64,000 nt of DNA from Escherichia coli (GTDB lineage Bacteria > Pseudomonadota > Gammaproteobacteria > Enterobacterales > Enterobacteriaceae). Shown one piece after another: positions 1,634 to 10,078 of this stretch. The DNA is taken from NCBI RefSeq assembly GCF_003334305.1, contig NZ_QOWS01000016.1. One strand, written 5' to 3'. Within the stretch, counting starts at the first letter, position 1, and every line of letters begins with the position of its first letter. The notes beneath the pieces were generated by a model. The model saw only the letters and a list, made by a program, of their open reading frames with translations, was not told the origin of the DNA and made no database searches. The position numbers and the translations under genes are program-made.

Positions 1634-2339
1634 ACTTATTTGTGGCCATCGCTCCATTCGCCATTTCACTGATGAACCCATTTCCGAAGCGCAGCGTGAG
1701 GCGATTATTAACAGCGCCCGTGCGACGTCCAGTTCCAGTTTTTTGCAGTGCAGTAGCATTATTCGCATTACCGACAAAGCGTTACGTGAAGAACTGGTGA
1801 CGCTGACCGGCGGGCAAAAACACGTAGCGCAAGCGGCGGAGTTCTGGGTGTTCTGTGCCGACTTTAACCGCCATTTACAGATCTGTCCGGATGCTCAGCT
1901 CGGCCTGGCGGAACAACTGTTGCTCGGTGTCGTTGATACGGCAATGATGGCGCAGAATGCATTAATCGCAGCGGAATCGCTGGGATTGGGCGGGGTATAT
2001 ATCGGCGGCCTGCGCAATAATATTGAAGCGGTGACGAAACTGCTTAAATTACCGCAGCATGTTCTGCCGCTGTTTAGGCTGTGCCTTGGCTGGCCAGCGG
2101 ATAATCCGGATCTTAAGCCGCGTTTACCGGCCTCCATTTTGGTGCATGAAAACAGCTATCAACCGCTGGATAAAGGCGCACTGGCTCAGTATGACGAGCA
2201 ACTGGCGGAATATTACCTCACCCGTGGCAGCAATAATCGCCGGGATACCTGGAGCGATCATATCCGCCGAACAATCATTAAAGAAAGCCGCCCATTTATT
2301 CTGGATTATTTGCACAAACAGGGTTGGGCGACGCGCTAA
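1617..2339 (+). CDS. nfsA: Oxygen-insensitive NADPH nitroreductase NfsA
   Basis: 240-aa ORF; sequence recognised as NfsA (MTPTIELICGHRSIRHFTDEPISEAQREAII...). Confidence 0.9.
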   Translation: MTPTIELICGHRSIRHFTDEPISEAQREAIINSARATSSSSFLQCSSIIRITDKALREELVTLTGGQKHVAQAAEFWVFCADFNRHLQICPDAQLGLAEQLLLGVVDTAMMAQNALIAAESLGLGGVYIGGLRNNIEAVTKLLKLPQHVLPLFRLCLGWPADNPDLKPRLPASILVHENSYQPLDKGALAQYDEQLAEYYLTRGSNNRRDTWSDHIRRTIIKESRPFILDYLHKQGWATR

Positions 2340-2399
2340 AACCGCCACGTCGATGTATGATACGCGGGCTTTTGACCAGGTCTGACAGAGAGGTGCAGG

Positions 2400-3302
2400 G
2401 TGAAAATTGCCATATTGTCCCGGGATGGAACGCTCTATTCGTGTAAGCGGCTGCGTGAAGCCGCTATACAGCGCGGTCACCTGGTTGAAATTCTTGATCC
2501 GCTTTCTTGCTACATGAACATAAATCCTGCGGCGTCTTCTATTCACTACAAAGGCCGCAAGTTACCCCATTTTGACGCAGTGATCCCGCGTATTGGCACC
2601 GCCATTACCTTTTATGGGACGGCGGCACTGCGCCAGTTCGAGATGCTGGGGAGCTATCCGCTCAATGAGTCGGTCGCCATTGCCCGGGCGCGTGACAAAT
2701 TGCGTTCCATGCAACTGCTGGCGCGTCAGGGCATCGACCTGCCTGTCACGGGCATTGCGCATTCGCCGGATGATACCAGCGATTTAATCGACATGGTCGG
2801 TGGTGCGCCGCTGGTGGTCAAGCTGGTTGAAGGCACGCAGGGAATTGGCGTCGTGTTGGCGGAGACGCGTCAGGCGGCGGAAAGCGTGATTGACGCTTTC
2901 CGCGGTCTGAACGCGCATATTCTGGTGCAGGAATATATCAAAGAGGCGCAAGGGTGCGATATCCGCTGTCTGGTTGTTGGTGATGAAGTGGTCGCTGCGA
3001 TTGAACGGCGAGCGAAAGAGGGCGATTTTCGTTCCAATTTGCATCGTGGCGGCGCGGCAAGCGTCGCCAGTATCACACCACAGGAGCGTGAAATCGCGAT
3101 AAAAGCCGCGCGAACGATGGCGCTGGACGTTGCTGGTGTGGATATTCTGCGTGCTAATCGCGGGCCGTTGGTGATGGAAGTGAATGCGTCGCCAGGGCTG
3201 GAAGGAATAGAAAAAACAACCGGTATCGACATCGCGGGTAAAATGATCCGCTGGATCGAACGCCACGCTACGACGGAATATTGCCTGAAAACGGGTGGTT
3301 AG
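2400..3302 (+). CDS. rimK: Ribosomal protein S6 glutamate ligase RimK (ATP-grasp)
   Basis: 300-aa ORF, GTG start; ATP-grasp fold protein recognised as RimK. Confidence 0.9.
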
Positions 3303-3389
3303 TCGCAATCACATTACTGATCATGGTTTTGCCTGCGCTTTTTGCGTAAGCTGTGCCGGTCTTTTTATCGGAAGAGGTTGTACAAAATT

Positions 3390-7520: not shown

Positions 7521-8362
7521 ATAATTTACCGGTAGTTCGTTCGCCCTGGCGGATTGTGATTTTGCTGCTGGGCTTTACCTTTCTCTACGCGCCAATGCTG
7601 ATGCTGGTTATCTATTCGTTTAACAGCTCGAAGCTGGTGACGGTGTGGGCCGGCTGGTCAACGCGCTGGTATGGTGAGTTATTGCGCGATGACGCGATGA
7701 TGAGTGCGGTTGGTTTAAGCCTGACAATTGCTGCCTGTGCGGCAACGGCGGCGGCGATCCTCGGGACTATTGCGGCGGTGGTGCTGGTGCGCTTTGGCAG
7801 GTTTCGCGGATCAAATGGCTTTGCCTTTATGATCACCGCGCCGCTGGTGATGCCAGATGTCATCACGGGCTTGTCGCTGTTGTTATTATTCGTCGCGCTT
7901 GCTCATGCCATTGGCTGGCCTGCGGACCGCGGTATGCTCACCATCTGGCTGGCGCATGTCACTTTTTGTACGGCTTATGTGGCGGTCGTTATTTCTTCAA
8001 GATTGCGGGAACTGGATCGCTCGATAGAAGAAGCAGCGATGGATCTCGGTGCGACGCCGCTGAAAGTGTTTTTCGTCATTACGCTACCGATGATCATGCC
8101 CGCGATCATTTCTGGCTGGTTACTGGCTTTTACTTTGTCGCTTGATGATCTGGTGATCGCCAGCTTTGTTTCCGGGCCGGGAGCCACCACGTTACCGATG
8201 CTGGTCTTTTCCAGCGTGCGGATGGGGGTGAATCCGGAAATCAACGCCCTTGCAACGTTAATTCTCGGTGCGGTCGGAATTGTCGGATTTATCGCCTGGT
8301 ATCTGATGGCTCGCGCAGAAAAACAGCGGATACGCGATATCCAGCGTGCAAGACATGGCTGA
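7517..8362 (+). CDS. potI: Putrescine ABC transporter permease PotI
   Basis: ORF track 7475..8362 trimmed to ATG at 7517 (MNNLPVVRSPWRIVILLLGF...), 281 aa. Confidence 0.85.
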   Translation: MNNLPVVRSPWRIVILLLGFTFLYAPMLMLVIYSFNSSKLVTVWAGWSTRWYGELLRDDAMMSAVGLSLTIAACAATAAAILGTIAAVVLVRFGRFRGSNGFAFMITAPLVMPDVITGLSLLLLFVALAHAIGWPADRGMLTIWLAHVTFCTAYVAVVISSRLRELDRSIEEAAMDLGATPLKVFFVITLPMIMPAIISGWLLAFTLSLDDLVIASFVSGPGATTLPMLVFSSVRMGVNPEINALATLILGAVGIVGFIAWYLMARAEKQRIRDIQRARHG

Positions 8363-8392
8363 AGACACTAAAATTTGCCAACCTGGCTACAT

Positions 8393-8420
8393 AATGCCGC
8401 GCATGCCGCGGCATTGTTTT
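8393..8420 (+). terminator. Rho-independent terminator after potFGHI
   Basis: AATGCCGCG-catgc-CGCGGCATT stem followed by GTTTT. Confidence 0.55.
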
Positions 8421-8421
8421 C

Positions 8422-8910
8422 ATGGAAGACGAAACGTTGGGATTTTTTAAGAAAACATCTTCATCTCATGCTCGCCTGAATGTGCCTGCGCTGGTGCAGG
8501 TGGCGGCGCTCGCCATTATTATGATCCGTGGCCTCGACGTGCTGATGATTTTCAATACGCTGGGCGTGCGCGGTATTGGCGAGTTCATTCATCGCAGCGT
8601 ACAAACCTGGAGTTTAACGCTGGTCTTTTTAAGCAGTCTGGTGCTGGTTTTCATTGAGATCTGGTGTGCGTTTTCACTGGTGAAAGGGCGTCGCTGGGCG
8701 CGCTGGCTATATCTGCTGACACAAATCACCGCCGCAAGTTACTTGTGGGCGGCTTCGCTGGGGTACGGTTATCCGGAGCTGTTCAGCATTCCCGGTGAAT
8801 CAAAACGTGAAATCTTCCATAGCCTGATGCTGCAGAAGCTGCCGGATATGCTCATCCTGATGCTGCTGTTCGTTCCCTCGACCAGTCGGCGGTTCTTCCA
8901 GTTGCAATAA
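8422..8910 (+). CDS. ybjO: Inner membrane protein YbjO
   Basis: 162-aa hydrophobic ORF; start assignment uncertain because the ATG directly abuts the upstream terminator T-run. Confidence 0.7.
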   Translation: MEDETLGFFKKTSSSHARLNVPALVQVAALAIIMIRGLDVLMIFNTLGVRGIGEFIHRSVQTWSLTLVFLSSLVLVFIEIWCAFSLVKGRRWARWLYLLTQITAASYLWAASLGYGYPELFSIPGESKREIFHSLMLQKLPDMLILMLLFVPSTSRRFFQLQ

Positions 8911-8950
8911 TGTGTATAATCGTCGCCCCTGATGATGTGAAGGTCAATGT

Positions 8951-10078
8951 ATGCAGTGCGCACTTTACGACGCGGGTCGCTGTCGTTCCTGTCAGTGGAT
9001 AACGCAGCCGATTCCAGAGCAACTCTCCGCTAAAACCGCCGATCTTAAAAATCTGCTCGCCGATTTTCCGGTTGAGGAATGGTGCGCGCCGGTGTCAGGC
9101 CCGGAACAAGGGTTTCGTAATAAAGCCAAAATGGTGGTGAGTGGTAGCGTTGAAAAACCACTGCTCGGTATGCTGCATCGCGACGGCACACCAGAAGACC
9201 TTTGTGACTGCCCGCTTTATCCTGCCTCATTTGCGCCCGTTTTTGCGGCGCTAAAACCGTTTATCGCCCGTGCGGGGCTGACACCCTACAACGTGGCGCG
9301 TAAGCGTGGCGAACTGAAATACATTCTGCTGACTGAAAGCCAGAGCGATGGCGGCATGATGCTGCGCTTTGTACTGCGTTCTGAAACCAAACTGGCACAA
9401 CTGCGTAAGGCGCTGCCGTGGTTACAGGAACAACTACCGCAACTGAAAGTTATTACCGTCAATATTCAGCCGGTACATATGGCGATTATGGAAGGGGAGA
9501 CGGAGATCTACCTTACTGAACAACAGGCGCTGGCAGAGCGTTTTAATGACGTACCGCTGTGGATCCGTCCGCAAAGTTTCTTCCAGACTAATCCGGCGGT
9601 CGCCAGCCAGCTGTACGCTACCGCGCGCGACTGGGTACGGCAGCTGCCAGTTAAACATATGTGGGATCTGTTCTGCGGTGTGGGTGGCTTTGGTTTACAC
9701 TGCGCGACGCCTGACATGCAGTTAACCGGGATCGAAATTGCATCAGAGGCCATTGCCTGTGCAAAGCAGTCAGCCGCTGAACTGGGCTTAACGCGTTTGC
9801 AATTTCAGGCGCTGGACTCCACTCAGTTTGCCACCGCTCAGGGGGAGGTGCCGGAGCTGGTGCTGGTTAATCCGCCGCGCCGCGGCATTGGTAAACCGCT
9901 ATGTGATTATCTCTCAACAATGGCACCGCGTTTTATTATCTACTCCAGCTGTAACGCCCAAACCATGGCGAAAGATATCCGCGAACTGCCAGGTTACCGC
10001 ATCGAACGGGTACAGCTTTTTGATATGTTCCCGCACACCGCGCACTATGAAGTGCTGACGCTGCTGGTGAAGCAATAA
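8951..10078 (+). CDS. rlmC: 23S rRNA (uracil747-C5)-methyltransferase RlmC (RumB)
   Basis: 375-aa ORF; N-terminal Cys cluster ([14 protein letters not shown]) and SAM-methyltransferase core typical of RumA/RumB family. Confidence 0.9.

Follow-up and report, generated by a model that had tools for sequence, protein, structure and literature searches.

A TTG codon downstream of the annotated ATG is the probable translation start of Escherichia coli ybjO, a gene with its own promoter and a conserved hairpin in its leader

The annotation of ybjO in Escherichia coli raises the question of how ribosomes could initiate at a codon that stands directly behind a stable hairpin, with no space left for a ribosome-binding site. 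The DNA analysed here, henceforth the window, is a stretch of 64,000 nt (contig NZ_QOWS01000016.1, assembly GCF_003334305.1) that represents the E. coli chromosome segment potFGHI-ybjO-rlmC-artJ; all positions are those of the window, and every feature located below lies on its plus strand. The region is widespread within the species, as a probe covering positions 8200–9000 matched 5,419 of 5,426 complete E. coli genomes at an identity of at least 95%. The gene potI ends with a TGA stop codon at 8360–8362 (an in-frame TAA is also present at 8369–8371), and direct reading then gives, from 5′ to 3′, the hairpin at 8393–8415, G8416, a TTTT run at 8417–8420, C8421, and the annotated ybjO start codon ATG at 8422–8424, with C8421 as the only base between T-run and ATG. 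The open reading frame from this ATG (8422–8910) encodes 162 aa and begins exactly where RefSeq places the ybjO start (WP_000389260.1, NP_415379.1), both in K-12 and in all other E. coli records inspected. Its product is recognized by the Pfam model PF10767 (DUF2593) with E = 3e-65, which aligns over model positions 1–140 of 141 and residues 21–160 of the 162-aa form; no NCBIfam model matched YbjO. An earlier note on this DNA had pointed out that the ATG abuts the hairpin and T-run and that no ribosome-binding site fits outside the stem, and this layout is borne out by direct reading: no Shine-Dalgarno (SD)-like sequence occurs between the stem and the ATG, where the duplex with the anti-SD amounts to −1.7 kcal/mol.

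Sequence comparison and published initiation data, taken together, assign a probability of roughly 85% to the reading that translation of ybjO starts at a TTG codon at 8437–8439 (Leu6 of the annotated protein, +15 nt), on transcripts that are made from the gene's own promoter and carry the hairpin in their 5′ untranslated region (UTR). The comparison drew on 32 orthologous loci from a one-genome-per-species collection and seven loci added by protein look-ups (Salmonella, Enterobacter hormaechei, Klebsiella quasipneumoniae, two Citrobacter, Yokenella, and Kluyvera); the Leclercia sequence NCTC13032 (L027), in which a 1-nt insertion shifts the frame, was left out of the counts, and 39 sequences were used. 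Codon 6 is TTG in 34 of these loci, GTG in three (a Pluralibacter MAG, Cedecea, and C. rodentium), ATG in one (Enterobacter sp. R1), and GAG in one, hence start-capable in 38/39. The exception, a Buttiauxella MAG, has an upstream ATG only, so that start usage may differ between lineages. At the 18 other conserved leucine columns of ybjO, TTG makes up 7% of the codons and exceeds 27% in no column. Because TTG is kept at codon 6 even though it is a rare leucine codon, and is replaced almost exclusively by GTG or ATG, the column behaves as a start codon would and not as a leucine. Similarly, coding-type three-base periodicity begins at TTG 8437, with a variability by codon position of 0.16/0.10/0.35 in codons 7–33 and 0.13/0.06/0.33 in the rest of the gene; the preceding stretch, 8422–8436, gives 0.37/0.45/0.32 and is devoid of such periodicity.

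The TTG codon is also furnished with a ribosome-binding site of its own. A weak SD, GGAAG, is found at 8424–8428 with an 8-nt spacer to the TTG, and the G of the annotated ATG is in fact its first base. G8424 and G8425 are invariant in a MAFFT alignment of 27 sequences; when 26 lineages are compared in ungapped register, G8425 and A8427 are constant and G8424 differs in 12%, which makes these three the best-conserved bases between the hairpin and the TTG. The anti-SD duplex at the TTG site is weak in E. coli (−3.3 kcal/mol) and reaches −5 to −6 kcal/mol in many relatives. Opening the ribosome site around TTG 8437 is predicted to cost 6–8 kcal/mol, compared with 16–17 kcal/mol for a ribosome-sized site at ATG 8422, the latter cost being high because that site takes in the 3′ arm of the stem. 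As the ribosome-binding site of the TTG lies wholly 3′ of the hairpin, its use requires no melting of the stem. Pairing of GUUUUC with GAAGAC into a small helix would hide the SD; such a fold is predicted for E. coli, E. albertii, and Citrobacter MGH106 but not for most genera, and was given no weight.

With the TTG as the start, the coding sequence spans 8437–8910 and specifies a PF10767 protein of 157 aa that begins with MGFFKK. A 157-aa annotation from the homologous TTG already exists in RefSeq for Salmonella, Yokenella, Lelliottia, and several Citrobacter. In other relatives, ybjO is annotated with 159, 165, or 170–178 aa from dubious upstream codons, one of which is a CTG inside the hairpin.

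Initiation at the TTG has, moreover, been recorded experimentally in a genome-wide survey. Nakahigashi et al. (2016, DNA Res 23:193, PMC4909307) mapped initiating ribosomes by tetracycline-inhibited ribosome profiling (TetRP), and row 88 of their Table S2 lists ECK0849 ybjO with a new initiation site at 897227 (U00096.2), a shift of 15, the codon TTG, the class "1. new site", and a product beginning MGFFKKTSSS. The TetRP depth in three samples was 129/60.2/16.7 at the TTG versus 0/0/0 at the annotated ATG, these being supplementary-table values from a single laboratory (PMC4909307). The search covered 60 nt around the annotated start, a GTG at +60 included, and the field for a second candidate is empty for ybjO; the N′-peptide column is likewise empty (PMC4909307). 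The lacZ fusions that were built in the same work to tell the ATG from the TTG gave an activity too low to interpret (PMC4909307), and the TRAINSPOTTER supplements contain no N-terminal peptide of YbjO. The TTG start has therefore been in the literature since 2016 without reporter confirmation and never reached GenBank or RefSeq. The situation is the same as that of ftsH, potA, rfaQ, and yedI, for which the same data set moved the annotated AUG to a nearby UUG: annotators took an upstream in-frame ATG, and ribosomes start at a nearby non-AUG codon that has its own SD. ybjO differs from the other re-annotations in that reporter confirmation failed owing to low expression and the GenBank/RefSeq entries were left unchanged. 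The comparison of the 39 loci supplies the confirmation that the lacZ reporter could not give.

The gene has its own σ70-type promoter, which overlaps the end of potI. The −10 element, TAAAAT at 8369–8374, begins six bases after the potI stop, and 26 of 27 lineages have a TAnnnT hexamer in the corresponding position (TAAAAT, TAGAAT, TACTAT, TACACT, or TATAAT), with T1, A2, and T6 kept; the TATAAT variant is that of a Klebsiella MAG whose upstream sequence differs. The mapped transcription start site (TSS), A8381, follows downstream of the hexamer at a distance of exactly 7 nt and corresponds to the plus-strand Cappable-seq TSS at 897171 (U00096.2), with a relative read score (RRS) of 19.7 and a log2 enrichment of 4.5 in a supplementary table from a single laboratory (Ettwiller et al. 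2016, PMC4782308). The coordinates were anchored on the annotated ATG, which is 897212 in U00096.2, 897989 in NC_000913.3, and 8422 in the window, with no indels between K-12 and the window in this region. A candidate −35 element, GTGCAA at 8346–8351, is placed inside the last codons of potI by its spacing to the −10 and the TSS; it agrees with the consensus at 3/6 positions and leaves a 17-nt spacer. At the last six usable potI codons (D-I-Q-R-A-R), one codon is kept in 88–100% of 26 lineages, compared with a gene-wide mean of 69%, and the conserved codons include sixfold-degenerate arginines fixed as CGT and as the rare AGA. A generic promoter and terminator scan called neither this promoter nor the hairpin, and the case for both therefore draws on sequence comparison and published work. 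Cappable-seq also lists a weak TSS at 897208 with a score of 2.7 (PMC4782308), which falls on T8418 within the T-run; an alternative −10, CATAAT at 8390–8395, was rejected, since it is not conserved and this weak TSS lies too far downstream of it (23 nt).

The TSS at 8381 and the conserved −10 together establish that ybjO is transcribed from its own promoter and that the hairpin belongs to its 5′ UTR, which measures 56 nt and holds the hairpin at +13 to +35. Several proposals of the earlier note can be weighed on this basis. Its suggestion that the true start is a downstream in-frame Met holds as far as the start is downstream and in frame, and fails on the codon, which is TTG 8437 and not a Met. 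Its other suggestion, that ybjO translation depends on read-through or on melting of the structure, applies in part to transcription, in that the TSS is upstream and every ybjO transcript passes the hairpin and U-run; for translation, melting is unneeded in view of the low opening cost at the TTG. It had also named a full-length 162-aa N-terminus expressed from an independent promoter as the observation that would speak against its doubt; such a promoter has been found, and the evidence favours the 157-aa protein.

The hairpin itself consists of a perfect 9-bp inverted repeat, AATGCCGCG/CGCGGCATT, with arms at 8393–8401 and 8407–8415 and a 5-nt CATGC loop. It folds with −16.5 kcal/mol as an 11-bp GC-rich stem (8391–8417, a U·G pair included; z = −3.5), and none of 200 shuffles was as stable. 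A stem-loop is present at the same place in every genus with a different sequence; for example, the stem arm is AATGCCGCG in Escherichia, GGCGCCGCA in Klebsiella, GCCTCTCCC in Pluralibacter, and GGTGCAGCG in Citrobacter MGH106. Among 27 enterobacterial sequences, both partners have changed in seven of the nine pairs, and pairing holds in 95% of the cells compared with 30–61% when the 3′ partners are slid; 0/500 shuffles reached the observed values. Given these compensatory changes and a fold stability beyond that of shuffled sequences, the comparison clearly indicates a selected structure and not a chance one. The 12-nt leader that precedes the stem is not conserved. An origin from a REP or another repeat element was rejected on its single occurrence in the window, as was membership of a known RNA family, the only Rfam match being a sub-threshold chance hit to asX2 (18 bits versus a gathering score of 70). 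The T-run, TTTT followed by C, is kept as GTTTTC, GTTTTT, TTTTTC, or ATTTTC in most genera and is missing in the clade of Buttiauxella, Enterobacter R1, and Cedecea, where the hairpin is kept.

The most economical reading of this element is a leaky intrinsic terminator, on account of its position after the last gene of potFGHI and of the U-run that follows it. The stem, with 9–11 bp and a 5-nt loop, falls within the usual description of an intrinsic terminator (GC-rich, at least 5 bp, a loop of 3–8 nt), while the U-tract, GUUUUC, offers four U residues, three of them after the extended stem, where a typical terminator has at least 5–6 within 8 nt. In the proposed sequence of events, RNA polymerase would start at the ybjO promoter overlapping the end of potI and transcribe a leader in which the hairpin and short U-run are followed by the weak SD and the TTG, from which a 157-aa inner-membrane protein would be made. 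The hairpin and U-run would probably act as a leaky terminator that ends most potFGHI transcripts, and a fraction of polymerases would pass into ybjO (and rlmC). The start of ybjO transcription is upstream of the hairpin, so that polymerases from both promoters have to traverse it. That transcripts end at the hairpin, how efficiently they do so, and the co-transcription of ybjO and rlmC are presumed, and "potFGHI terminator" is a putative label. Leaky termination, the TTG codon, and the weak SD would jointly keep the expression of YbjO low. Low YbjO expression of this kind is in keeping with the failed lacZ assay.

Leaky terminators or attenuators between transcription units are known from the E. 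coli rplL-rpoB attenuator and the rpsU-dnaG T1 terminator. The ybjO element resembles both in placing a GC-rich hairpin and U-run between genes of the same strand, with downstream expression in need of read-through; it differs from them in that the ybjO promoter lies between the upstream stop codon and the hairpin, and the gene's own transcripts meet the putative terminator at +13 to +40.

Alternatively, and with a tentative standing well short of even odds, the hairpin may not be a terminator at all, and may instead stabilise or regulate the ybjO mRNA as a stem-loop near its 5′ end, or protect the 3′ end of a processed potI mRNA, with potFGHI transcription either continuing or ending by other means. 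The distance from the TSS down to the stem is 12 nt in E. coli and, judged by the spacing from the −10, only about 1–4 nt in Yokenella and C. sedlakii-type sequences, in the manner of 5′-terminal stabiliser hairpins. The shortness of the U-tract points the same way, together with a consensus terminator scan that did not flag the site, the Buttiauxella clade whose hairpin has no U-run, and the 3′-end tables in the supplement text of Adams 2021, in which neither ybjO nor potI appears; the two genes were likewise not found in Romero 2014 or in the supplement text of SMRT-Cappable-seq, and a literature search for a "potFGHI terminator" returned nothing relevant. However, in most genera the stem leads straight into a U-run although its own sequence has turned over completely, terminators typically stand right behind the final gene of an operon, and low ybjO expression fits attenuation. 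Stem-loops near the 5′ end that stabilise mRNA are known from the type found in the ompA 5′ UTR. Unlike that type, the E. coli ybjO mRNA has 12 unpaired nt before the stem, which would weaken protection, and a U-run after it.

It is unlikely that the hairpin works as a regulated promoter-proximal attenuator, responding for example to polyamines, NusA/NusG, or growth rate, or that it releases a functional RNA of about 40 nt (8381 to ~8420). If either were true, the end of a putrescine-uptake operon would be coupled to the expression of ybjO-rlmC. A leader of just 12 nt is too short to accommodate an antiterminator, and no evidence of a regulated switch at the hairpin was seen.

Returning to initiation at TTG 8437, the reading that ATG 8422 is a genuine start in E. 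coli, either sole or secondary, and yields a 162-aa protein is distinctly improbable. For this, either the stem would have to melt or 30S subunits would have to load on the adjoining U-rich single strand by standby or SD-independent initiation. In its favour, the ATG shares the reading frame and occurs throughout Escherichia and Klebsiella as well as in some sequences of Citrobacter and Leclercia; initiation is inherently better at AUG than at UUG; RefSeq places the start here; and the lacZ test of ATG against TTG could not be interpreted. Against these points, codon 1 is ATG in 19 of the 39 enterobacterial loci and is CAG, AGG, ACG, CAT, AAG, or TAT in the other 20. Pluralibacter and Cedecea retain the ATGGAA motif with the ATG 14 nt, and not 15 nt, from the TTG/GTG, hence out of frame, and the same ATG-to-TTG spacer is longer by one base in E. 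hormaechei. Moreover, the ATG lacks TetRP depth in all three samples as well as an SD, it bears the high opening cost given above, and the 15 nt from its first base onward carry no coding signature. The annotated ATG is thus most likely an annotation error rather than unusual biology, and minor use of it in E. coli would be conceivable, albeit with no positive support.

A start farther downstream, at M34 (8521), M42 (8545), or the GTG of V21 (8482), which would give a much shorter protein, is scarcely credible: these codons are in frame and the Pfam model begins at residue 21, precisely the GTG at 8482, but codons 7–33 show the evolution of a coding sequence, at an amino-acid conservation of 80%, many relatives carry Leu or Thr at M34 and a codon other than GTG at V21, distant homologues (30–45% identity) keep an xPVPV motif and the TM1 segment that such starts would delete, the TetRP search took in the GTG at +60 and lists the +15 TTG only (PMC4909307), and opening the site around GTG 8482 costs 13–15 kcal/mol. 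On the coding periodicity, the Pfam coverage, and the distant homologues, these downstream Met and GTG candidates were rejected.

The mis-annotation of ybjO is of a kind already catalogued by initiation profiling, the gene itself is in that catalogue, and its TSS stands in a public table; the finding has no bearing on any long-standing open question and will not surprise specialists. What the present analysis adds is comparative proof of the TTG, the overlap of the annotated ATG with the SD, and the placement of the promoter between the potI stop and the hairpin. As a consequence, YbjO is five residues too long in the K-12 reference, as it is in practically all of the ~5,400 E. coli RefSeq genomes, and orthologues are annotated with 157, 159, 162, 165, or 170–178 aa according to the upstream codon that the pipeline found. 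Moving the start to the TTG removes the puzzle of a start codon without room for a ribosome-binding site and harmonises the annotation of the family. At the same time, the promoter between the potI stop and the hairpin at the end of potFGHI makes for a compact arrangement, a promoter and a putative terminator in one 60-nt spacer, which may be used for studying promoter-proximal termination.

The last six usable codons of potI, GAT ATC CAG CGT GCA AGA (8341-8358), are near-invariant at their synonymous sites across about 20 genera, as compared with 69% for potI as a whole, which implies that the coding sequence here overlaps an element acting at the nucleotide level. This element would most simply be the ybjO promoter's -35/UP region, the -10 hexamer TAAAAT of that promoter lying at 8369-8374. 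In an uncultured Klebsiella metagenome-assembled genome (locus positions 1355-1500), about 85 additional bases separate the potI stop codon from the -10 position, and the hexamer found there is the consensus TATAAT; the promoter element is retained at this locus despite the differing upstream sequence. Separately, an in-frame TAA occurs three codons past the potI TGA (8360-8371), and the same TAA supplies the opening three bases of the -10 hexamer; potI itself appears to end at this TAA in Kosakonia. The downstream TAA could act as a back-up in tandem with the TGA, or could be a mere by-product of the promoter.

Between the hairpin and the ybjO coding sequence, a weak Cappable-seq start (U00096.2 position 897208, score 2.7) maps to 8418, within the T-run and 4 nt ahead of the annotated ybjO ATG, and the sequence upstream of it holds no recognisable -10. 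At the RNA level, the U-run GUUUUC is predicted to pair with GAAGAC of the Shine-Dalgarno region within 8416-8430, placing the AUG in the loop. This helix is present in the minimum-free-energy folds of E. coli, E. albertii and Citrobacter MGH106, and is absent from those of most other genera.

YbjO orthologues, including those of E. hormaechei and C. sedlakii, are annotated at 157, 159, 162, 165 and 170-178 aa, a spread that arises because annotation pipelines choose differing upstream codons, among them one CTG within the hairpin and, in other cases, a GTG upstream of it. In Leclercia adecarboxylata NCTC13032, a 1-nt insertion (cagtcCacatgcc) near locus positions 1500-1550 shifts the ybjO frame after approximately codon 15, so that the ATG and the TTG argued to be the real start are both out of frame with the remainder of the gene. 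The insertion points to a pseudogene or else to an error in the assembly, and this locus does not enter the start-codon counts.

Further downstream, a perfect TATAAT (8915-8920) is located between the ybjO stop codon (8908-8910) and the rlmC ATG (8951); it could be an rlmC promoter, but no good -35 accompanies it at a spacing of 16-18 nt. In E. coli E2865, which matches the probe 8200-9000 with 100% identity, rlmC (locus positions 2252-3376) is annotated as a pseudogene with its C-terminus missing.

A 247-nt contig assigned to 'Bacillus hominis' (NZ_BOQD01000698.1) encodes a peptide 100% identical to residues 78-158 of E. coli YbjO, which is almost certainly contamination of the Bacillus assembly. 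Plasmid-labelled records account for 7 of the 5,424 matches to the chromosomal segment 8200-9000, and these may be mis-labelled replicons or plasmids carrying chromosomal segments.

Finally, E. coli GmM077 (NZ_CM183654.1) carries a natural deletion in which a truncated potF is fused straight to rlmC, with the loss of potGHI and of ybjO, so at least one isolate can do without ybjO.
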